Source of the DNA: Clostridia bacterium
Lineage (GTDB): Bacteria; Bacillota; Clostridia; UMGS1883
Length of the DNA: 64,000 nt
Assembly: GCA_045604905.1 (NCBI GenBank)
Contig: JAZUOX010000061.1
Location: forward strand, 1,987-65,986
Direction of reading: 5' to 3'
This document shows, piece after piece, positions 7,301 through 44,762 of this stretch. Positions within the stretch are counted from its first letter, which is position 1; each line of letters opens with the position of its first letter. The position numbers and the translations under genes are program-made. The notes below the pieces were generated by a model that had not been told where the DNA came from, ran no database searches, and saw only the letters and a program-made list of their open reading frames with translations.

Positions 7301-7916
7301 GACGACGGAATGCTTCTACTGCATCCATGTTAACGAGCTTTTTAAGCTGTTCGTCACTCCAGCACTCAACCTTCTGATATTCGTGAGAAGTTCTGAAACC
7401 GTCAAAGAAATGAAGGAAAGGAACTCTTGCCTCAAGTGTTGTGAGGTGTGCTACTGCACCAAGGTCCATAGCTTCCTGGGGATTTACAGAACAGAGCATT
7501 GCATAACCTGTCTGACGGCATGCGTATACGTCCTGATGATCACCGAAAATTGAAAGAGCGTGTGAAGCAAGTGCACGAGCAGATACATTAATAACTGAAG
7601 GCAAAAGCTCCCCTGCGATCTTGTACATGTTGGGAATCATAAGAAGAAGACCCTGAGAAGCTGTGTAAGTTGTTGTAAGAGCACCTGCTGTAAGAGAGCC
7701 GTGAACGGCACCTGCAGCACCACCCTCAGACTGCATTTCTGCAATCTTTACAGTTCTGCCGAAAATGTTCTTCTTTCCTTTTGCAGCCCATTCATCTGTA
7801 ACCTCAGCCATGTTTGAGGAAGGTGTAATGGGGTAGATAGCAGCAACGTCTGTAAACGCATAAGAGACATATGCGGCAGCGGTGTTACCATCCATGGTTT
7901 TTTTGTTTCTTGCCAT
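4395..7916 (-). CDS. nifJ: Pyruvate:ferredoxin (flavodoxin) oxidoreductase
   Basis: This 1173-aa single-chain PFOR has two ferredoxin-type CxxCxxCxxxCP motifs (CIQCNFCSYVCP, CTGCGSCANVCP) and a TPP-binding GDGWAYDIG motif. Confidence 0.97.
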   Translation of the reverse strand: MARNKKTMDGNTAAAYVSYAFTDVAAIYPITPSSNMAEVTDEWAAKGKKNIFGRTVKIAEMQSEGGAAGAVHGSLTAGALTTTYTASQGLLLMIPNMYKIAGELLPSVINVSARALASHALSIFGDHQDVYACRQTGYAMLCSVNPQEAMDLGAVAHLTTLEARVPFLHFFDGFRTSHEYQKVECWSDEQLKKLVNMDAVEAFRRRSLNPYHPAQRGTAQNPDVFFQAKEANNKFYDAVPELCQAYMDKVNAEIGTDYKLFNYYGAADAEHVIVAMGSACDTIQETVDYLNAKGAKVGLIKVRLYRPFSAKHLIDAIPASVKRISVLDRTKECGSIGEPLYLDVVAALRDSQFKDVEIFGGRYGLGSKDTTPAQIIAVYNNADKKRFTIGINDDVTFTSLQITENPDTTPAGTTSCKFWGLGADGTVGANKNSVKIIGDHTDMNVQAYFDYDSKKSGGLTVSHLRFGNAKITSTYLVNKADFVACHKASYIRKYDMVSDVKPGGVFLLNCPWTKAEEFEAHIPGQVKRYIAENDVQFYVIDGVQIGKEIGLGNRINTVLQSAFFKLANIIPAADAIQYMKDAATASYSKKGEAIVKMNHDAIDMGAQRVIKVDVPASWKDAKDEDLSVKFDGEGKLVDYINNILNPINSFAGMKLPVSAFVPYADGEVPLGSSAFEKRGIAIDVPEWKSENCIQCNFCSYVCPHACIRPVVLTEEEAKNAPEGIKYINMTGLNGLYFAMAVSVLDCTGCGSCANVCPGKKGEKALVMQPLETQEDKQAFFDYGIKIPEKAEVLEKFKPTTVKGSQFKQPLLEFSGACAGCGETPYAKLVTQLYGDKMYIANATGCSSIWGGSSPSTPYTTNAKGEGPAWANSLFEDNAEYGFGMFLAQNTLREDLVTKVEAVKETADDAAKAVIDKFLETKEDVNANKVAAEELMEVLAKMNTPEAAEILKDKEYLSKKSVWILGGDGWAYDIGYGGLDHVLASGEDVNILVFDTEVYSNTGGQSSKATPTGAIAKFAAAGKEVKKKDLAAIAMSYGYVYVAQVAQGADNNQCIKAFVEAGSYNGPSIVIAYAPCINHGIKGGMSIAQTEEKRAVQAGYWHLFRFDPRRTAEGLNPFQLDSKEPTESYEEFLMNEVRYNSLARSNPDRAKELFAKAAETAKAKYAELVERASK

Positions 7917-8026
7917 TTGATTGACCTCCTTGTGTATATAAAAATTAATTTCTGAAATGTTATAAACACGGAAAATCAGGCTTAAAACATCTTTCTAAGC
8001 CTTAAATCCCATATTTAACCTTATAT

Positions 8027-8055
8027 ATTATACCCCTTTCATCTTTAATAGTCAA
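8027..8055 (-). promoter_or_regulatory. Candidate sigma-A promoter for nifJ
   Basis: On the minus strand: TTGACT (8055-8050), a 17-nt spacer, then TATAAT (8032-8027). This implies a leader of roughly 110 nt. Confidence 0.5.
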
Positions 8056-8100
8056 GCATTTATCTCAAAAAACAGCAAAAAGCGATATTTAAATACTGAT

Positions 8101-10650
8101 TTAATTGTTTTCTGAAATTTCGCGGATTATATCCTCTATTTCCTTTTCAACAAATTCAATTTCCTTAACAAACGCAGATGCACTTATTCTCTGTGCACCG
8201 CTACCAAGAATTATCATTTGTTCAAGAGCATCACTTGTAGCAACCTGAACGTGGTATTTCTTTCCAAGCTCGTGTGCCGCTTTTTCAATATAAGCATCGG
8301 CAGTCTGCGCTTCTTTGGTATATACAACGGTAATATTATTTACTTTTTCCACTTCGCCGCGATTACCCTTTACCTTGTAAGCGTCAAAAACAAGTATCAA
8401 TTCCTGCGGTCGCATTGCCTTGTACGCACACATTTTATCAATGAGCATTTCTCTTGCATCTTCAAGGCTGTCTTTTGCAATCTCTTTCAGCTTATCCCAT
8501 GCAAAAATCACATTATACCCGTCAACAAGAAGATAACCCGGACCTATTTTCTGGGGAGTCGACCTAACCTTTGCTTTCGGGGCGTAATCCTTCGGGGTCT
8601 TCATTGCATTATGGTTTTTGCGGACAATTTTTCCGTAGGTACGCTCAAATATGCGCATCAGCTCTTCTTCGTCGTACACTTCTGTTGTTTTCTTTACATA
8701 GTGAACAGGAGTAATATCCTCCGCTTTCGGTGCAAGAATACTTTCAAGATGCATATACTCTGTCACTTGATGCCAGGGCACAGTAAAGCCTGCTCCCTGT
8801 TTACAGAAAACAGAATCGGCGGTATTGGAAATATCTCCGTCACAGTCATAACCAATACTTTCAATTATCTCATCAGCGTTTTCACATACATCATACCCCG
8901 ACAGCGCTAAGTTCAGCTTACCTTCGCCATGAGTATAGCTTGTAACGGTTCTCTGATATTCGGCAATATGTCTTACCGGGGCCTCGCCTGTAAGTATACT
9001 CATTTCTCCTGCCATTTCCGGAGGATTTATTTTTGCATTCATTTTTTCAAGGTCCATCATAGCTCTGCCGGTATTTTCCTGAGGCACTGCAAGCTCAAAA
9101 CTGTAAAACGGCTCAAGCAGGATACTCTCTGCGCATCTGAGTCCGTGGCGGACAGCTCTGTATGTTGCCTGACGAAAATCTCCGCCCTCGGTATGTTTTA
9201 TATGTGCTTTGCCCGATTTAAGCGTGATTTTCACATCAGTAACGGGACTACCCGTCAGTACACCCTTGTGATTCTTTTCTTTAAGGTGCGTGAGAATGAG
9301 TCTCTGCCAGTTCCGTGACAAATCATCCTCACGGCAATCGGTTTCGAACTGGAGCCCGCTTCCTCTTTTCAGAGGTTCTAAAAGAAGATGCACCTCTGAA
9401 TAATGGCGAAGCGGCTCATAGTGTCCTACCCCTTCTACTGGTGCAGCAATGGTTTCTTTATATACAATACTTCCCTGCTCAAAAGCTACATCAAGAGAAA
9501 ATCTCTCTTTCAGAATCCTCTGCATTATTTCAAGTTGCACATCACCCATAAGACTCAGATGTATTTCAGAAAGTATTTCGTTATATATTACATTAAGAGA
9601 ATTTTCCTCTTCTTCCAGCTTTTTAAGCTTTGCAAGTGCAATCCTTGTATCTGTTCCGTCAAGGATTGTTACTTTATAAGTAAACACACTTTCAAGAACC
9701 GCATCGGGGGCATCCTCTTCACATCCGATACCCATACCTGCATAGCTTTCACTTAGTCCGCATATGCAACACACGTCACCGGGGTAAACTGTCTGCACAT
9801 TTTTATATTTAGCACCTGAATAGATGCGGATTTCGCTGATTTTTTCTTCAATTTCTCCATAGGTGATTTTATCGCGGATGCTGAAAGTACCGCCTGTTAT
9901 TTTTGTATGGGTAAGGCGTACTCCCTTTTCGTCATCAGATATTTTAAACGCCTTTGCTGAGGGAGTTTTTCCGGCATTGAAGCTTTCTGTATATTTTGCA
10001 AAATTTTCGAGAAATACATCTATCCCATCACCTTTAAGAGCTGAACCGAAAAAGCATGGAAAAACCTTTCTTTCAAAAATCTTTCTGCGGATATCTTCAT
10101 CAGAGAGTGTTTCCGTTTCAAGGAATTTTTCCATCAATTCTTCGTCATTTACAGAAACTTCTTCCATAAAGTTTTCCGCAGAAAAATCAACACAGCCCTC
10201 GGAAAGTTCACTTTGAAGATTACCCATTACCGTACTTTTGCTTTTCTCGGAAATGTCCATTTTATTTACAAACACAAACACGGGAATCTGATGCTTTTTA
10301 AGGAGTTTCCACAGTGTTACGGTATGGCTCTGCACACCGTCAGTTCCACTTATTACAAGGATTGCGTAATCAAGGACCCATAGTACTCTTTCCGCCTCGG
10401 TAGAAAAGTCAACGTGACCGGGGGTATCAAGAAGTGTCACCTGTGCTTCGCCTAAGTTCATAACCGCCTGTTTAGAAAAGATGGTTATGCCTCTTTCCTT
10501 TTCCATTAAGTCAGTATCGAGGAATGCGTCCCGATGGTCAACTCTGCCCATTTTACGGATATCTCCGCTATGGAAAAGCATCGCTTCGGAAAGAGTTGTC
10601 TTCCCTGAGTCAACATGGGCAAGTATGCCCGTCACTATTCTTTTATCCAT
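8101..10650 (-). CDS. Fusion protein: Tet(M)/EF-G-like translational GTPase (about aa 1-640) plus a C-terminal Rae1/YacP-type NYN (PIN-like) ribonuclease domain (aa 705-849, nt 8104-8538)
   Basis: GTPase motifs AHVDSGKT, DTPGH and NKMD are present, and the Tet(M)-like N-terminus reads ILAHVDSGKTTL...ERGITI. The C-terminus GYLLVDGYNVIF...LVFDAYKVKG...TKEAQTADAYIE...VATSDALEQ aligns by eye with B. subtilis YacP/Rae1, including all four acidic residues. Confidence 0.9.
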   Translation of the reverse strand: MDKRIVTGILAHVDSGKTTLSEAMLFHSGDIRKMGRVDHRDAFLDTDLMEKERGITIFSKQAVMNLGEAQVTLLDTPGHVDFSTEAERVLWVLDYAILVISGTDGVQSHTVTLWKLLKKHQIPVFVFVNKMDISEKSKSTVMGNLQSELSEGCVDFSAENFMEEVSVNDEELMEKFLETETLSDEDIRRKIFERKVFPCFFGSALKGDGIDVFLENFAKYTESFNAGKTPSAKAFKISDDEKGVRLTHTKITGGTFSIRDKITYGEIEEKISEIRIYSGAKYKNVQTVYPGDVCCICGLSESYAGMGIGCEEDAPDAVLESVFTYKVTILDGTDTRIALAKLKKLEEEENSLNVIYNEILSEIHLSLMGDVQLEIMQRILKERFSLDVAFEQGSIVYKETIAAPVEGVGHYEPLRHYSEVHLLLEPLKRGSGLQFETDCREDDLSRNWQRLILTHLKEKNHKGVLTGSPVTDVKITLKSGKAHIKHTEGGDFRQATYRAVRHGLRCAESILLEPFYSFELAVPQENTGRAMMDLEKMNAKINPPEMAGEMSILTGEAPVRHIAEYQRTVTSYTHGEGKLNLALSGYDVCENADEIIESIGYDCDGDISNTADSVFCKQGAGFTVPWHQVTEYMHLESILAPKAEDITPVHYVKKTTEVYDEEELMRIFERTYGKIVRKNHNAMKTPKDYAPKAKVRSTPQKIGPGYLLVDGYNVIFAWDKLKEIAKDSLEDAREMLIDKMCAYKAMRPQELILVFDAYKVKGNRGEVEKVNNITVVYTKEAQTADAYIEKAAHELGKKYHVQVATSDALEQMIILGSGAQRISASAFVKEIEFVEKEIEDIIREISENN

Positions 10651-10753
10651 GACACACTACCTCCTTTTCAATCTTTTCAATATTATTTAATTTTATCATT
10701 TTATAGATTAAAGTCAAGCTAAACAATGCTTTTTGTTTCATTTTATTTTTATT

Positions 10754-10819
10754 TGACGAAAAGTTTTTTTGCATCCATTCACAGTTTGACAAAATAACCC
10801 CATGTTGAGTTGCTACAAT
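10754..10819 (+). promoter_or_regulatory. Candidate spoIIE promoter with a Spo0A-box-like site and a long spacer
   Basis: TGACGAA (10754-10760) fits the 0A-box pattern TGNCGAA. TTGACA (10786-10791) is followed by a 22-nt spacer and TACAAT (10814-10819). Confidence 0.45.
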
Positions 10820-10851
10820 CAATGTATGCTTTTTGAAAGGATGATTTACCA

Positions 10852-13182
10852 ATGAGCAAACTTTTACTTAAACCTTTGCGGAAGTTACGCGGTAAAAAAC
10901 GCAGTTTCCGGGCTACCGGCAAACAACAGTTGAAAAACGAAGACCTTATTAAGCTTTCTTTGAAATGTCTGTGCGCATTTTTGCTTTCAAGGACAAGCCT
11001 TGTGGGAGGATCTCACCCGCTGGGATTTTCGTTTTTTGCCGCGGTATTTACCGGAGGAGGAGGCTACAGATGTGCACTGTTTTCTGTACTGGGCCTTATG
11101 TTTTCAGGAGTCAGTTTTGTCTCAGTCGGCAAGTACATAATCTCAATAATACTGTTTTCTCTCATTATGGAAAGATTTCTTCCTGACAGGTACAAAAGCG
11201 GGAAAGCAGCAGCTCTGACAGCTGCATCAACCCTTCTTTTGTCAGGTGTTTTTCTGCTTTTTGCAAACTCTGCCCTTGGAGGATATCCGCTTATATATGA
11301 CTGCGTTGTATTGATTGTAGAAGTTGCCACCGTGTGGATATCAACCCTGGCATTTTCTAAATCTGTGCCCCTTGTATTTTCTCTCAGACTTCGCCACAGT
11401 CTTACTCCTGAGGAAACGGTTTCTGTTGCACTCCTTGCAGGCGGGGTCCTTTGCGGTTTCGGCGAGGCCGGAATTGAGGGAGTCCTTTCAATCAATGGAA
11501 TTCTTTGTGTCCTTGCTGTACTCATTTTTGCTGTCCGATTCGGAAGCCTTTATGGGTGCGGTGTCGGAATAATAATGGGAATTGTAAATTGTCTCAGCCA
11601 CGGAAGAATTGACGCCGGTGCTGCTTCTTTCGCTCTTTCCGGACTATGTGCAGGATATTTTGCACGTTACGGTAAAGTCCCTGCATGTATGTCCTTTATT
11701 ATTTCCAATGCACTTGTTACCATTTTTTCGAACGGTTCAACCGAAGTGCTGATAAACATATCAGATACTGTGATTGCTTCTGTGCTTCTTCAATTTTTAC
11801 CGAAAAGCTTTTTCAACACCCTCAGTCACTTTTACGGTTATGCTCCGCCTAAGGTTGAGCTTGCTGCTCAAAGATTATACTGCGCAGAAAAAACCATCAG
11901 CAGTATTGAGGATATCTCAAAAAAAATATCTGCGTTGCGAAAAAGCGAAGAGGCAAATACACTTATACTCTATAAGCGCACTGCGTATAAAGCCTGCGGA
12001 AATTGCGGGCTTCGGAAATACTGTTGGGGACGGGATATCAATTCCACCAAAGCTTCACTCGATGAGTTATGCAAAATTTTAAAGGACGGCGAAGAACCGT
12101 CACCTGAGCTTTCTCCGGAACACTGTCTTCGCAAAGAACAATTTACAGAGCATTTTAAAAGAATGTTTGAAGTTTATAAAAACGACTGCCTCTGGACTGA
12201 AAGATTGGGCGAATTTCAGTCAGCGGTATATTCCGGATACAATACTGTGTCTGCTATTTTCAGAAAAAGCGCAGATTCCCTACTCTCGGAGGGTGAATGT
12301 GATGTTGCCGCAGCAGATTCTGTAAAAATCAATCTCAGAAAAGACGGAATCCTTGCTGAAAATGTTTTTGTAAGCGGCACTAAAGAAGACACTTGCGTGC
12401 AGATAAAACTTGAGAGCTGCGGTGGTTTCGGAAGATGTGAAAACGCAGTTTGCAATGTACTTGAAAAAACCTTTAATATGCCATTTGTCAGAACAGGTCT
12501 GAGAAGCTGTGACAGCTGTATACACCGTTATGTGGTGAAGCCTTCGTTTTCTATAACAACAGCAGTTGCCGGTGCTGTAAAAGCAAACCGCAAAGTCAGT
12601 GGAGATTATGTTATCTATGCATTGCTTGACCGTCATAATTATGCAATTATTCTGTGTGACGGTATGGGAAGCGGAGAAATTGCCCGGGAGGAAAGTCGCA
12701 GTTCCGCAAAACTTCTTTTAAGATTGCTTGAAACCGGTATTAGTCCGCAGGATGCCATAAACTTTATAAATTCGATGTTACTGTGCTCTGTTACAGAAAC
12801 AGTAACTGCAATTGATTTATGCATCATTAGTCTCGACGACGGCTCTTCCTCAATTTATAAATGCGGGGGTGCCACAAGCTTTGCCAAATTAGGAAAAAGC
12901 GTCACCCATGTAGATTCCACAGGACTTCCGGCAGGCAGTTTTAACAAATGTGATACAGATATTTTTTCCGTTCCGTCTGAAAAAGGAAGTATGGTGATAC
13001 TCATTTCCGACGGTGTAATTGCATCAGAATCAGACTCTCCCCTATGGATAAAAGATGTGATTGAAAAATATGACGGAAGCGAGCCTGAAGCTGTGGCTCA
13101 GATGATACTTGAAAAAGCAAAATCATCCGGTTCTGCTACTGTGCATGATGACCTTACGGTGGTCGCCGCATATATCGGTTAA
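10852..13182 (+). CDS. spoIIE: Stage II sporulation protein E (PP2C-type phosphatase with a polytopic membrane domain)
   Basis: The 776-aa protein has about 10 hydrophobic segments in the N-terminal third and a C-terminal PP2C/SpoIIE domain (...ILCDGMGSGE...LISDGV...HDDLTVV). Confidence 0.9.
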   Translation: MSKLLLKPLRKLRGKKRSFRATGKQQLKNEDLIKLSLKCLCAFLLSRTSLVGGSHPLGFSFFAAVFTGGGGYRCALFSVLGLMFSGVSFVSVGKYIISIILFSLIMERFLPDRYKSGKAAALTAASTLLLSGVFLLFANSALGGYPLIYDCVVLIVEVATVWISTLAFSKSVPLVFSLRLRHSLTPEETVSVALLAGGVLCGFGEAGIEGVLSINGILCVLAVLIFAVRFGSLYGCGVGIIMGIVNCLSHGRIDAGAASFALSGLCAGYFARYGKVPACMSFIISNALVTIFSNGSTEVLINISDTVIASVLLQFLPKSFFNTLSHFYGYAPPKVELAAQRLYCAEKTISSIEDISKKISALRKSEEANTLILYKRTAYKACGNCGLRKYCWGRDINSTKASLDELCKILKDGEEPSPELSPEHCLRKEQFTEHFKRMFEVYKNDCLWTERLGEFQSAVYSGYNTVSAIFRKSADSLLSEGECDVAAADSVKINLRKDGILAENVFVSGTKEDTCVQIKLESCGGFGRCENAVCNVLEKTFNMPFVRTGLRSCDSCIHRYVVKPSFSITTAVAGAVKANRKVSGDYVIYALLDRHNYAIILCDGMGSGEIAREESRSSAKLLLRLLETGISPQDAINFINSMLLCSVTETVTAIDLCIISLDDGSSSIYKCGGATSFAKLGKSVTHVDSTGLPAGSFNKCDTDIFSVPSEKGSMVILISDGVIASESDSPLWIKDVIEKYDGSEPEAVAQMILEKAKSSGSATVHDDLTVVAAYIG

Positions 13183-42202: not shown

Positions 42203-42230
42203 TATAATAATATTGAAACGAGGTAATTTT

Positions 42231-44762
42231 ATGGATATCCGCGAGTTTAAAAATACATATAAAGAATTTTCTCCCTCCCTAATATGGGACTGGTGCGCAA
42301 AACCCACACCTGAGGAAATTGATTTTAAGCTTTCTTCATTTTCTTATATGGGGATTAAAAGTGTATACATTCGCCCGTCAAAGGGTCTTGCTACCCCCTA
42401 TCTTTCCGAAGATTATTTTGAGCTTATCCGCACTGCCGCAAGAAGAAGCGCACGCTACGGTATAGATATATGGGTTTTTGACGAAAATGCATCTGCAAGC
42501 GGAATCGGTGGCGGTGAAATTACCAGCGTTGACGATTACAGGCTCCGTGATTTTATAAAGGTAAACAAAACAGATATAGAAAAAACCGACGACATCTTAG
42601 CGGAAGATAATTCTTCTGCTCTGGTGCTTCGCGATATATCCGCTCTCCGAGCATCTACCCGTAACCCTATTGCCAACATTACCGACAGCTTTGTTTCAAA
42701 GTGCTTTTCCGAGGAAGTGTATGACCGCTACATCCGCGGATGCAAACGATTCATCGGATATGAAATTAAAGGCATTGTTTCAGGAATTAATTTGCCTGAT
42801 GACAGCACCATATATTCTCCTGAGGTATTCAGACGTCTTGACAACCCAGATAAAGCAAAATACGGCAAAAAGCTTCTTTCTAAAGATAAAGAAACATTGT
42901 CGTCATACTACGGCACTGTCAGTGACTGCATCAGAGAAAATTTCGTGTCACTTCTCCGTAAAAAATGCGGTGACAATAATCTTTCTCTTTCCGTATCTGT
43001 ATGCGGAAAAAGCGTCCTTTCACGTCAGAAGCAGTATATGGAAGCTGACAGTATTGTCCTCTATGCTGATGCGAAGAACCATGATATTATGGAATTCAAG
43101 CTGGCTGAATCAATAAGCTCACAGTTTAATAAACCCTTTACCGTATATCTTTCAACAGGAAAATTTGCGTCTGCAGCAATGCGGTTTAACAAAGCGGCAA
43201 AGCTTTGCGCTATGGGTGCACAGGCTGTTTCTTACAACAGTGTGGCATTCTCCCTTACAGACAGAAGAAAGTATGAGGATAATTCCCTTGTTCTCTCATC
43301 ATCCTCTGAAAAGGATATATCTGGCAGAATGTCAAGATTTTCTAAAGTTACATCTGAAACGAAATCCGCTGCAGATGTTCTTATTGTTTATTCACCCGAA
43401 AGCTATGATTTCTTCTCTGAATTATGCGAGCATTTTACTTCTCAGAACATTCAGTTTCACATAACAGAAAAGGATATATTCACATCGTTTTCAAAATGTG
43501 CTGACGGCAAAATCACAGTTGGTGAAAACGTCTACAACACTGTCGTTTATGAAAAAAATACAGTGGCATTGCCCGATGCATTTTCAGGTAAATCAATCGC
43601 ACTTGACACAACTCTTTCACCAAAAAACTGTAACATTACAGTGGACAGTACATCAACCTTGATAAGTGGTGATAAGGATTTTACCGTTAACCGCAGAAAA
43701 GATGGTGCAAACGAATATATATATATTACTACAACAAAGGGTGACACGGAAATCACCGTTTCGAATCTTACAAAAAAGCTTTTTGCTGCAGACAGTTCGA
43801 ATGGAGAAATTTACGAAATTCCCGAAACAGACAGTGTATGCAAATTTATTCTGAAAAACAATAAAACGGTACTTCTCATAGTTTCGGATGAATTTAATTA
43901 TGACATAATTCCTCCTTACACCGATGAGATTAAGCTCACCTATGGCGAAAAGGTATGTGATGTTCCCTTTGCCCTTTCGTCCGCAGGGGAAAATATTCTG
44001 CCCCTTAAGACGGTTAATGCCTGCTTTGGCAGAAAGGCGTACCGAGAAAATAACATTGATAATCTTCATAAGGAATTTTACGCTCTTCCCGACGGCGAAA
44101 CTGTAAAAGTAAAATATCCTTTTACCGCACATAAGGATAAAATCGGAACAGTTAAAGCATATTTTGAATATGCTGATAATTTTGATTTTGTTGAGCTTAA
44201 CGGAATAAGGCTTGAAAACCTTACACAAGCCGAAAACGACCCCAGATTTTTCGGTACTGATATTACCGAATATATTGCAGATGGCAAGAACACCCTTGCA
44301 GTAGAATATAAAAAGTGCAATAACTACACCCCCGATTTTAAGAGTTTCACTCCGTTGCATCTTTATTCTTTCAATACTACAAGCTTTGAGCCTGTATACC
44401 TTTCAGGAGATTTTGATGTTGACGGTGAAACAATTACACAGCTTGATGAATACACAAATGATGTAACTGAGTGCGGTATGCCCTATTACTACGGTGCTAT
44501 TACATACGTTGCTAAGCTTCCGGAAGACGGACTTTCCGGCACACTTCTTACCGTTCACGGCAATTTTGATATTTGCCGTATTAAAATCGGCAAGCGTGAG
44601 CTTACGTTCTATTCGGAAGTTCCCGAAACTGAACTTTTCAACCTTGACAGCGGAACTGTTGCGGAAATAACAGTGTTTAATACTCCCTACAACCTGCTTC
44701 GCACAACAGAGGAAAAGGCAAAACCCTTCGGTATTGAAAAAATAGAAATAATATCTCAATAA
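42231..44762 (+). CDS. Glycoside-hydrolase-like protein (N-terminal TIM-barrel-like region plus C-terminal beta-sandwich/jelly-roll regions); specificity unknown
   Basis: The N-terminal pattern ...WDW...TPEEID..L..F.YMGIKSVYIRPSKGL..PYLSEDYFELIR.AA..S..YGIDIWVFDE...SG..GG resembles uncharacterised GH-like families. The ATG at 42231 follows GAGGT. Confidence 0.6.
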   Translation: MDIREFKNTYKEFSPSLIWDWCAKPTPEEIDFKLSSFSYMGIKSVYIRPSKGLATPYLSEDYFELIRTAARRSARYGIDIWVFDENASASGIGGGEITSVDDYRLRDFIKVNKTDIEKTDDILAEDNSSALVLRDISALRASTRNPIANITDSFVSKCFSEEVYDRYIRGCKRFIGYEIKGIVSGINLPDDSTIYSPEVFRRLDNPDKAKYGKKLLSKDKETLSSYYGTVSDCIRENFVSLLRKKCGDNNLSLSVSVCGKSVLSRQKQYMEADSIVLYADAKNHDIMEFKLAESISSQFNKPFTVYLSTGKFASAAMRFNKAAKLCAMGAQAVSYNSVAFSLTDRRKYEDNSLVLSSSSEKDISGRMSRFSKVTSETKSAADVLIVYSPESYDFFSELCEHFTSQNIQFHITEKDIFTSFSKCADGKITVGENVYNTVVYEKNTVALPDAFSGKSIALDTTLSPKNCNITVDSTSTLISGDKDFTVNRRKDGANEYIYITTTKGDTEITVSNLTKKLFAADSSNGEIYEIPETDSVCKFILKNNKTVLLIVSDEFNYDIIPPYTDEIKLTYGEKVCDVPFALSSAGENILPLKTVNACFGRKAYRENNIDNLHKEFYALPDGETVKVKYPFTAHKDKIGTVKAYFEYADNFDFVELNGIRLENLTQAENDPRFFGTDITEYIADGKNTLAVEYKKCNNYTPDFKSFTPLHLYSFNTTSFEPVYLSGDFDVDGETITQLDEYTNDVTECGMPYYYGAITYVAKLPEDGLSGTLLTVHGNFDICRIKIGKRELTFYSEVPETELFNLDSGTVAEITVFNTPYNLLRTTEEKAKPFGIEKIEIISQ

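Follow-up and report, generated by a model that had tools for sequence, protein, structure and literature searches.

A clostridial translational GTPase joined to a Rae1/YacP-type NYN endoribonuclease domain, and its candidate role at stalled ribosomes

An uninterrupted 849-aa open reading frame (ORF) with an ATG start was examined at positions 8101..10650 (minus strand) of a 64,000-nt stretch of DNA from a Clostridia bacterium (GenBank assembly GCA_045604905.1, contig JAZUOX010000061.1, positions 1,987 to 65,986), hereafter called the window. The encoded protein joins a five-domain translational GTPase to a C-terminal NYN endoribonuclease domain of the Rae1/YacP type. We conclude that the fusion gene is a real, intact gene whose product adds a member to a reported but unstudied family. 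The fusion itself is not new: TetM-like/NYN_YacP fusions in Clostridia were reported by Atkinson in 2015 (BMC Genomics, PMC4342817) and again by Matelska et al. in 2017 (NAR, PMC5499597). What we add is a separate clade for the GTPase, a family signature that includes a C-terminal extension and a tether motif, and orthologues that have no NYN domain; none of these was found described in the literature searched, including the searched passages of those two papers. The features of the protein point, with about an even chance of being right, to a factor-site-anchored, GTP-gated mRNA nuclease that would act on stalled or collided ribosomes.

Pfam searches with the 849-aa protein returned GTP_EFTU at aa 5-222 (3.5e-47), EF-G_D2 at 234-301, EFG_III at 321-391, EFG_IV at 394-507, EFG_C at 511-591 and NYN_YacP (PF05991) at 707-846 (5e-49, 166.9 bits against a cut-off of 24.6). 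The ORF and these six domains bear out a sequence-only reading of this DNA, which had described one polypeptide joining a five-domain GTPase to a YacP-type NYN domain. The EFG_III score of 26.1 bits was slightly below its cut-off of 27; the fold of domain III is visible in the AlphaFold2 (AF2) model, and the model of the whole protein matched EF-G structures. Motifs G1 (AHVDSGKT), G2 (RGIT), G3 (DTPGH) and G4 (NKMD), previously called intact, were confirmed, and G5 (GSAL) is also present; together with the catalytic His of DxxGH these make up the motif set of the translational GTPase superfamily.

The NYN domain contains LVDGYN, VFDAY, TADAYIE and ATSD motifs, and its residues D710, D756, D785 and D807 align with D7, D53, D81 and D104 of Bacillus subtilis Rae1. 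Rae1 D7N D81N is a published catalytic mutant (PMC10351889). The NYN part matched the B. subtilis Rae1 crystal structures (PDB 5mq8 and 5mq9) with an E value of 1.5e-29, and the same two entries gave the best PDB-chain match to an AF2 model of the C-terminal 264 aa (42% identity; TM score of 0.70-0.75, normalised to Rae1, from Foldseek). With a Pfam score above the gathering threshold, the Rae1 fold and the acidic residues of the active site all in place, the earlier assignment of this domain to the NYN/YacP family stands.

Conservation was determined in a set of 85 fused sequences with 43-75% identity. Residues K17, T56, D75, H79, K130 and D132 of the GTPase were invariant, as were the four NYN aspartates. 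Because the G-motif residues, His79 and the four aspartates are all invariant, both modules appear to be under selection together. Domain IV was the most conserved region, with a mean commonest-residue frequency of 0.79 compared to 0.66 for the G domain and 0.72 for the NYN domain. This degree of conservation suggests that domain IV makes a contact under tight constraint, presumably with the decoding centre.

The fusion is common. More than 120 protein clusters (840-907 aa, 57-87% identity) contain the identical six Pfam domains. When the inter-domain segment alone (aa 590-706) was used as a query against 1.84 billion protein representatives, 607 relatives were obtained, and every full-length relative examined (803-950 aa, with identity in this segment down to 31%) contained the GTPase as well as the NYN domain. 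When genomes were scanned, one for each species, at least 597 relatives were identified, and the best 80 loci, each from a different species, were analysed. G1 and DGYN occur in one uninterrupted frame of 840-920 codons in 76 of the 80; in the other four a contig end cut the gene or the ORF-picking script took another ORF. The best genome match was only 72% identical in the C-terminal region among 600 matched stretches examined, in which the species of the window was absent. The fusion is also present in cultured isolates (Agathobacter rectalis, Monoglobus pectinilyticus, Ruminococcus sp. YRD2003 and Eubacterium xylanophilum ATCC 35991). Its distribution covers Oscillospiraceae, Ruminococcus, Acutalibacteraceae, Faecalibacterium, Oscillibacter, Anaerotruncus, Ruminiclostridium, Monoglobus, Eubacterium and Faecalimonas, as well as the Lachnospiraceae genera Blautia, Dorea and Agathobacter. 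We conclude that the family is large, widespread and vertically inherited in Clostridia.

Several database records of family members call for separate comment. Protein P0122 (624 aa) begins with a CbiA/AAA_26 region, after which come the last part of EF-G domain IV, domain V, the extension and the NYN domain. A chimeric assembly or a gene-calling error is the probable explanation, the alternative being a real rearranged variant without a G domain. A fused gene on a 6.7-kb contig of a metagenome-assembled genome labelled as Bacteroidota (CAVEPP010000094.1, an 'Alloprevotella sp.' bin; locus L088) is more likely to reflect binning contamination than horizontal transfer. Fused-gene matches were also obtained in the UNVERIFIED 'Bacteriophage sp.' human-faecal scaffolds MT835563.1 (locus L104, 5397-8024) and MT835514.1. 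In MT835563.1 the full 875-aa fused ORF adjoins genes for an NAD(P)H-hydrate dehydratase and a peptidoglycan-binding protein. The scaffold carries bacterial housekeeping genes and appears to be bacterial DNA that entered a virome data set; a phage link is not supported. Similarly, the PLSDB 'plasmid' records NZ_OY725736/739/740 (Monoglobus), NZ_OY725717 (Collinsella), NZ_CP143948 (A. rectalis) and NZ_CP1496xx-1497xx (Clostridioides difficile) contain genes of the chromosomal core, among them rpoB/C, ribosomal protein operons, nusG, rlmB and cysS. These records appear to be chromosome pieces, and plasmid matches of this kind are poor evidence of mobility.

The sequence-only reading had called the GTPase Tet(M)/EF-G-like and its N-terminus Tet(M)/Tet(O)-like. 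The best NCBIfam match of the protein was indeed tet_protect (NF012153), but at 401 bits against a cut-off of 775, and the scores for NF033148 (286 against 1100), Tet(M) (242 against 1420), Tet(Q) (251 against 1425) and the EF-G model TIGR00484 (277 against 659) were likewise below their cut-offs. Identity to Tet(M), (O), (S), (W), (36) and B(P) was 30-33%, and to EF-G 24-29%; the closest solved structures were those of Tet(M) and Tet(O) (241 bits). A neighbour-joining tree of the GTPase body (585 columns, 100 bootstraps), a simple distance tree whose deep order is provisional, placed the fused proteins and the unfused forms described below in one clade (100/100). This clade was sister to the Tet(M)/(O)/(36)/B(P) clade (100/100), the two together lay apart from EF-G, and the window protein did not branch inside the Tet clade.

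The tip of domain IV gave the same picture. Loop I of the family is GV-GH[YF]EPLRHY[AS]EVH and reads GHYEPLRHY in the window protein; Tet proteins have PPNPFWA, and loop I of EF-G is four residues longer, with a GGxGQ[YF]G tip that is absent here. The family consensus for loop III is G[KR]AHxKHTEGGDFRQATYRA, as compared with GSYHEVDSSEMAF in EF-G. In Tet(M) the Y506-S508-P509 region of this loop displaces the drug. The Y-S-P motif, part of GLYYSPVSTPADF in Tet(M)/(O)/(36), is not found in the window protein, which has GKAHIKHTEGGDF at this position, and the latter is conserved in the family. In addition, the G' region is shorter than that of EF-G, and matches to EF-G were split around it. By these comparisons the GTPase is a distinct translational GTPase and not a Tet resistance protein; 'Tet(M)-like' is apt for its sister-clade position and misleading for its loops, its identity and its profile scores. 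Automatic annotation nevertheless names fused and NYN-less proteins alike as TetM/TetW/TetO/TetS family or EF-G, and some NYN-less ones are entered as GTP-binding protein.

The region between the two modules, previously described as a linker of about 65 aa, contains more than a linker. There is a low-confidence tether at aa ~637-705, with AF2 pLDDT values below 50 for aa 642-659 and 670-697, but it is preceded by a conserved 45-aa extension of the GTPase and itself carries a nearly invariant helix. The extension (aa 592-636) has the consensus ...YDxDxDxxNxADSVFCxxGAGFxVxWxxVxxYMH, with S613, F615, C616 and G619 invariant in the 85 sequences. It is also present in the NYN-less orthologues of Lactobacillaceae and does not occur in Tet proteins or EF-G. 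Tether length varies, the distance from H634 to D710 being 67 to 128 residues across the family, and the tether sequence is poorly conserved outside the one short helix, [DE]ELxxIFERTYG, in which E663, L664, F668, E669, Y672 and G673 are nearly invariant. The extension and tether matched no Pfam family even at E≤10 and had no structural neighbours among PDB chains. A by-eye likeness of the tether helix (EELMRIFERTYG) to the C-terminal tail of free Rae1 (SEEVLKTFEKWRRG) had no profile support, and we do not claim kinship.

The GTPase also exists without the nuclease. A tblastn search of plasmid records identified a 644-aa protein on the Ligilactobacillus salivarius megaplasmid pMP118 with 50% identity over residues 3-636; it includes the extension and stops there, without an NYN domain. 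Protein searches found the NYN-less form (640-665 aa, no PF05991) on chromosomes across the Lactobacillaceae. In the tree the NYN-less proteins form one group nested among the fused proteins, monophyly of the fused proteins alone being recovered in 1 of 100 bootstraps. This arrangement suggests that the NYN domain was lost in the Lactobacillaceae lineage, although the tree is too simple for certainty. Loop III is AHxKHTEGG in nearly all fused proteins and ASNVHSVGG(DF) in most NYN-less ones, so that the domain-IV tip may have changed together with nuclease loss; one NYN-less protein, P0369, retains GHIKHTVGG. The neighbourhoods of the NYN-less genes examined were varied, and rae1 was absent from them. 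On pMP118 the gene divergently adjoins a second copy of rpsN (S14) and a 'putative metal homeostasis protein' gene (locus L009, 5399-7917), and at one fused locus the zinc-related genes cobW, ZnuA and DUF1980 lie a few kb upstream (locus L006, 3600-6699). These neighbours could reflect a link to zinc-dependent ribosome remodelling, or chance.

The NYN domains of fused proteins are 42-55% identical to free-standing Rae1 proteins. The gene order rlmB-NYN-sigH is found in C. difficile and B. subtilis; the NYN domain of the window is neither a free-standing protein of ~170 aa nor encoded next to rlmB and sigH. All of the best 80 loci of the genome scan were fused, and a profile search for free-standing Rae1 gave only Peptostreptococcaceae and Bacillaceae among the matches listed. 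A. rectalis and Monoglobus have the rpmG-secE-nusG neighbourhood without rlmB-yacP-sigH. In M. pectinilyticus the fused gene is the sole NYN_YacP match in the available PLSDB records, and the rlmB locus lacks yacP; the 40 best matches to a cysS probe did not include this genome. The Monoglobus result hints that some genomes may have no Rae1 homologue besides the fusion.

Published views of Rae1 bear directly on function. The sequence-only reading took as its premise that Rae1 cuts mRNA in the A site. This premise is outdated: the A-site docking model was withdrawn by its authors (Deves et al.), who now put the cut 12 nt upstream of it, where the stalled ribosome has its tail end. A 2026 preprint (PMC13622287) reports that Rae1 acts at collided ribosomes and turns them into tmRNA substrates in B. 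subtilis, and states that, owing to transient binding, there is no structure of Rae1 on the ribosome.

In the mechanism that we propose for the fusion protein, the GTP form would dock at the ribosomal factor-binding site, like EF-G and Tet(M), and the conserved domain-IV tip would probe the decoding centre and select a particular stalled state. When a factor of the EF-G family is bound at the factor site, its domain IV lies in the 30S A site, in EF-G and Tet complexes alike. Since domain IV would fill the 30S A site by this binding mode, the NYN domain of a bound factor should not be able to sit there; the tethered nuclease, kept out of the A site, would cut the mRNA outside, where it enters or leaves the ribosome. 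We favour the gap between a stalled ribosome and the collided one behind it, the place reported for free Rae1, because the mRNA nearest to the factor site is that in the entry channel of the same ribosome, which in a disome abuts the exit of the stalled ribosome. Truncation of the mRNA would then permit tmRNA rescue of the ribosomes. GTP hydrolysis in such factors is triggered by the sarcin-ricin loop through the DxxGH histidine, and hydrolysis via His79 and this loop would release the protein. Ribosome binding, the RNA substrate, the cleavage position, GTP coupling and the link to tmRNA are what we infer here. A broader and decidedly more tentative idea is that the GTPase, fused or NYN-less, is a bacterial ribosome-rescue factor, an EF-G-family counterpart of Hbs1/GTPBP that would license Rae1-type mRNA cleavage in cis via the tether in Clostridia and in trans by recruiting free Rae1 in Lactobacillaceae, perhaps via the shared 45-aa extension.

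Several points weigh against the proposed nuclease function. The existence of NYN-less orthologues shows that the GTPase has a function of its own without a covalently attached nuclease. The inter-domain geometry of the AF2 model is unreliable (pTM 0.55). Going by sequence, the ribosome state that is recognised may equally be the leading ribosome with its A site empty or a collided ribosome in the rotated state, and the substrate of the NYN domain could be rRNA rather than mRNA. Finally, full-text literature searches turned up no functional study of any family member, and the sequence-only reading knew of none for this architecture; neither EF-G nor GTPase occurs as a term in two recent papers on Rae1, and the uses of 'fusion' and 'fused' inspected there never refer to this architecture.

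Other explanations concern the gene itself. The single ORF could in principle be an assembly or frameshift artefact joining two genes, and P0122 shows that chimeric calls exist in metagenome data. Nothing direct points to such an event in the window, the same intact architecture being found in the protein clusters, the one-frame loci, the cultured isolates and the distant relatives listed above. These independent genomes exclude the joining of two genes that had been named as a danger to the initial call, and the chance of an artefact is negligible. A tetracycline (or other antibiotic) ribosomal-protection protein with an added RNase domain, as suggested by Atkinson 2015, deserves more attention: tet_protect is the best NCBIfam match, Tet(M) and Tet(O) are the closest structures, the Tet proteins are the sister clade, and many members carry TetM/TetW/TetO/TetS family names, PGAP being the source of many of them. 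We nevertheless consider resistance very unlikely. All Tet cut-offs were missed widely, identity is low, loop I differs, and the YYSPVS of Tet loop III is replaced by AHIKHTEGG. The gene has no leader peptide or attenuator, unlike tet(M) at our comparison locus L012, and no transposon or plasmid context, and the distribution of the family across Clostridia orders and Lactobacillaceae chromosomes is housekeeping-like.

The remaining explanations accept a ribosome-associated nuclease and differ as to where it cuts. In the model put forward by the sequence-only reading, the GTPase delivers the NYN domain into the A site for a RelE-like cut of the A-site codon. Delivery of a nuclease to the ribosome is the natural reading of the fusion and may well be retained, and factors of the EF-G and Tet type do bind on the A-site side; Rae1 itself was originally docked into the A site and proposed to cut there (summarised in PMC10351889). 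The A-site placement is the part that we regard as improbable, as the model on which it drew has been replaced by its authors, domain IV would occupy the site, and the NYN domain hangs beyond domain V on its tether of 67-128 residues. Somewhat less improbable, though still unlikely, is a nuclease that acts on the ribosome itself, either in rRNA/tRNA processing or in decommissioning damaged or idle ribosomes by an rRNA cut near the factor site. This idea originates from the location of yacP within the rRNA/tRNA-processing cluster cysS-mrnC-rlmB-yacP, and a nuclease tethered at the factor site would be near rRNA elements. Against it, all validated Rae1 substrates so far are translated mRNAs, and the fused NYN domain shares with free Rae1 both the active site and the level of identity given above.

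The features of the fusion gene are collected in the Table. The predicted promoter-like site, identified by consensus scan, lies ~40 nt 5' of the start codon. An Rfam scan of 7800-11000 gave no match at E≤1, no attenuator-like terminator was found upstream of the gene, and the upstream region is too short for a leader peptide or attenuator of the tet(M) type. The PFOR gene downstream has a separate promoter-like site of its own by the same kind of scan.

Table. Features of the fusion gene and its product (window coordinates)
Feature	Position	Strand	Basis
Complete coding sequence, 849 codons + stop	8101..10650	-	ORF, Pfam domains, protein clusters
Promoter-like site TTGACT, 16 nt spacer, TAAAAT, upstream TG	10690..10717	-	Consensus scan only
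Shine-Dalgarno AAGGAGG, 9 nt 5' of ATG	10660..10666	-	Read from sequence
G domain, aa 1-225, G1-G5 + catalytic His79 of DTPGH	9976..10650	-	Pfam GTP_EFTU
Domain II, aa 226-320	9691..9975	-	Pfam EF-G_D2
Domain III, aa 321-393	9472..9690	-	Pfam EFG_III + AF2 fold
Domain IV, aa 394-508; tip loops GV-GHYEPLRHYSEVH, NWQ...GVLTGS, GKAHIKHTEGGDFRQATYRA	9127..9471	-	Pfam EFG_IV, loop comparison with Tet + EF-G
Domain V, aa 509-591	8878..9126	-	Pfam EFG_C
Family-specific C-terminal GTPase extension, aa 592-636	8743..8877	-	Alignments
Flexible tether, aa 637-705, helix at aa 661-673 (EELMRIFERTYGK), basic stretch before NYN	8536..8742	-	AF2 pLDDT, alignment
Rae1/YacP-type NYN endoribonuclease domain, aa 706-849, D710/D756/D785/D807	8104..8535	-	Pfam, PDB, fold match

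The DNA of the window is plain chromosomal sequence from a Clostridia bacterium that forms spores, with even GC content across the region. The fusion gene lies between PFOR and spoIIE, and other genes nearby encode HydF, a MinD-like ATPase and a class B penicillin-binding protein. PFOR adjoins the gene in relatives with at least 67% identity and not in more distant ones, and was found downstream in 1 of the 80 genome loci. The SpoIIE phosphatase gene (10852-13182, plus strand) is upstream and divergent; the same arrangement, with MatE in between, occurs in a 75%-identical relative (locus L001, 6011-8341), and the pairing was found in none of the 80 loci. We conclude that the SpoIIE pairing is lineage-specific synteny and not a functional link. 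No conserved operon partner was detected, the commonest neighbour family being present in 5 of 70 loci, and the helix-turn-helix neighbours mentioned by Matelska et al. did not recur among the genome loci. PADLOC gave no defence-system match, and no mobile-element, defence-island or phage signals were seen at the locus context examined. The stress or phage-response role offered earlier thus finds no support, given the lack of a PADLOC match and of conserved neighbours and the housekeeping surroundings. Matching GC content, its own promoter-like site, a strong Shine-Dalgarno sequence, no leader and no mobile context give the gene a housekeeping character.

Three unrelated loci have toxin-antitoxin genes close to the GTPase gene. 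BrnT/CopG immediately precedes it in A. rectalis (locus L010, 5319-5827), and YafQ/RelB was seen twice, directly downstream of an NYN-less gene in Levilactobacillus (locus L106, 9027-9621) and ~7 kb upstream in locus L006 (539-1070). Such pairs did not recur in neighbour clustering of the 80 loci. A second 849-aa ORF in the window (42213-44762, plus strand, TTG start) had no Pfam match at 1e-5 and is unrelated to the fusion gene; the equal length is coincidental.

Were the rescue-factor idea true, the fusion would be a 'Rosetta stone' for a GTP-gated no-go-decay pathway in Firmicutes. The fusion also bears on the question of how Rae1 recognises stalled or collided ribosomes, as the protein could in principle be locked on the ribosome by a non-hydrolysable GTP analogue or a His79 mutation; in the locked complex one could directly observe how a Rae1-type nuclease is placed. 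The family is common in dominant gut and rumen Clostridia (Faecalibacterium, Blautia, Dorea, Agathobacter and Ruminococcus) and may provide the main or only Rae1 activity there. Misnaming of fused and NYN-less proteins as TetM/TetW/TetO/TetS probably inflates resistance-gene counts in microbiome surveys.

The known system closest to the window protein is the fusion family of Atkinson and Matelska, with which it shares the taxon, Clostridia, and the identical architecture of GTP_EFTU, EF-G domains II-V and a C-terminal NYN_YacP domain in one polypeptide; those papers only record the fusion, file the GTPase under Tet and assign no function. With Tet(M) and Tet(O) it shares the five-domain translational GTPase body with a short G domain, the closest solved structures and the sister-clade position. 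It differs from them in loops I and III, in its 45-aa extension, tether and NYN domain, and in being encoded by a chromosomal gene without a leader peptide. The fold, the domain order and intact GTPase motifs are shared with EF-G, as is a loop-III histidine at the position of the SYH histidine of Thermus thermophilus EF-G. Unlike EF-G, it has a shorter loop I without GGxGQY and a shorter G' region, in addition to low identity and a score below the cut-off.

Likeness to B. subtilis Rae1 extends to the NYN_YacP domain with its four active-site aspartates, 42% identity and a TM score of 0.70-0.75, and ribosome dependence is presumed for both. Rae1 itself is free-standing and 170 aa long, has its gene in the rlmB-rae1-sigH cluster and binds the ribosome only transiently, whereas the NYN domain of the window is fused to a 636-aa GTPase and encoded elsewhere; most fused members, including the window protein, also lack the last ~25 residues of Rae1. 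SmrB of E. coli and MutS2 of B. subtilis are comparable by functional analogy only, as nucleases or sensors that are recruited to stalled or collided ribosomes, the cut mRNA then feeding tmRNA. According to the discussion in PMC13622287, their SMR domains touch both ribosomes, the collided one at uS3 and the stalled one at uS7 and uS11. They have unrelated folds and no GTPase, and use this disome interface (uS7, uS11, uS3) rather than the factor site. With Hbs1-Dom34, Ski7 and GTPBP1/2 the family shares the concept that a relative of the translational GTPases detects stalling and that detection is linked to destruction of the mRNA. These eukaryotic factors work with no-go-decay nucleases or the exosome. 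They belong to the EF1A rather than the EF-G family, and their nuclease or exosome is on a separate polypeptide.

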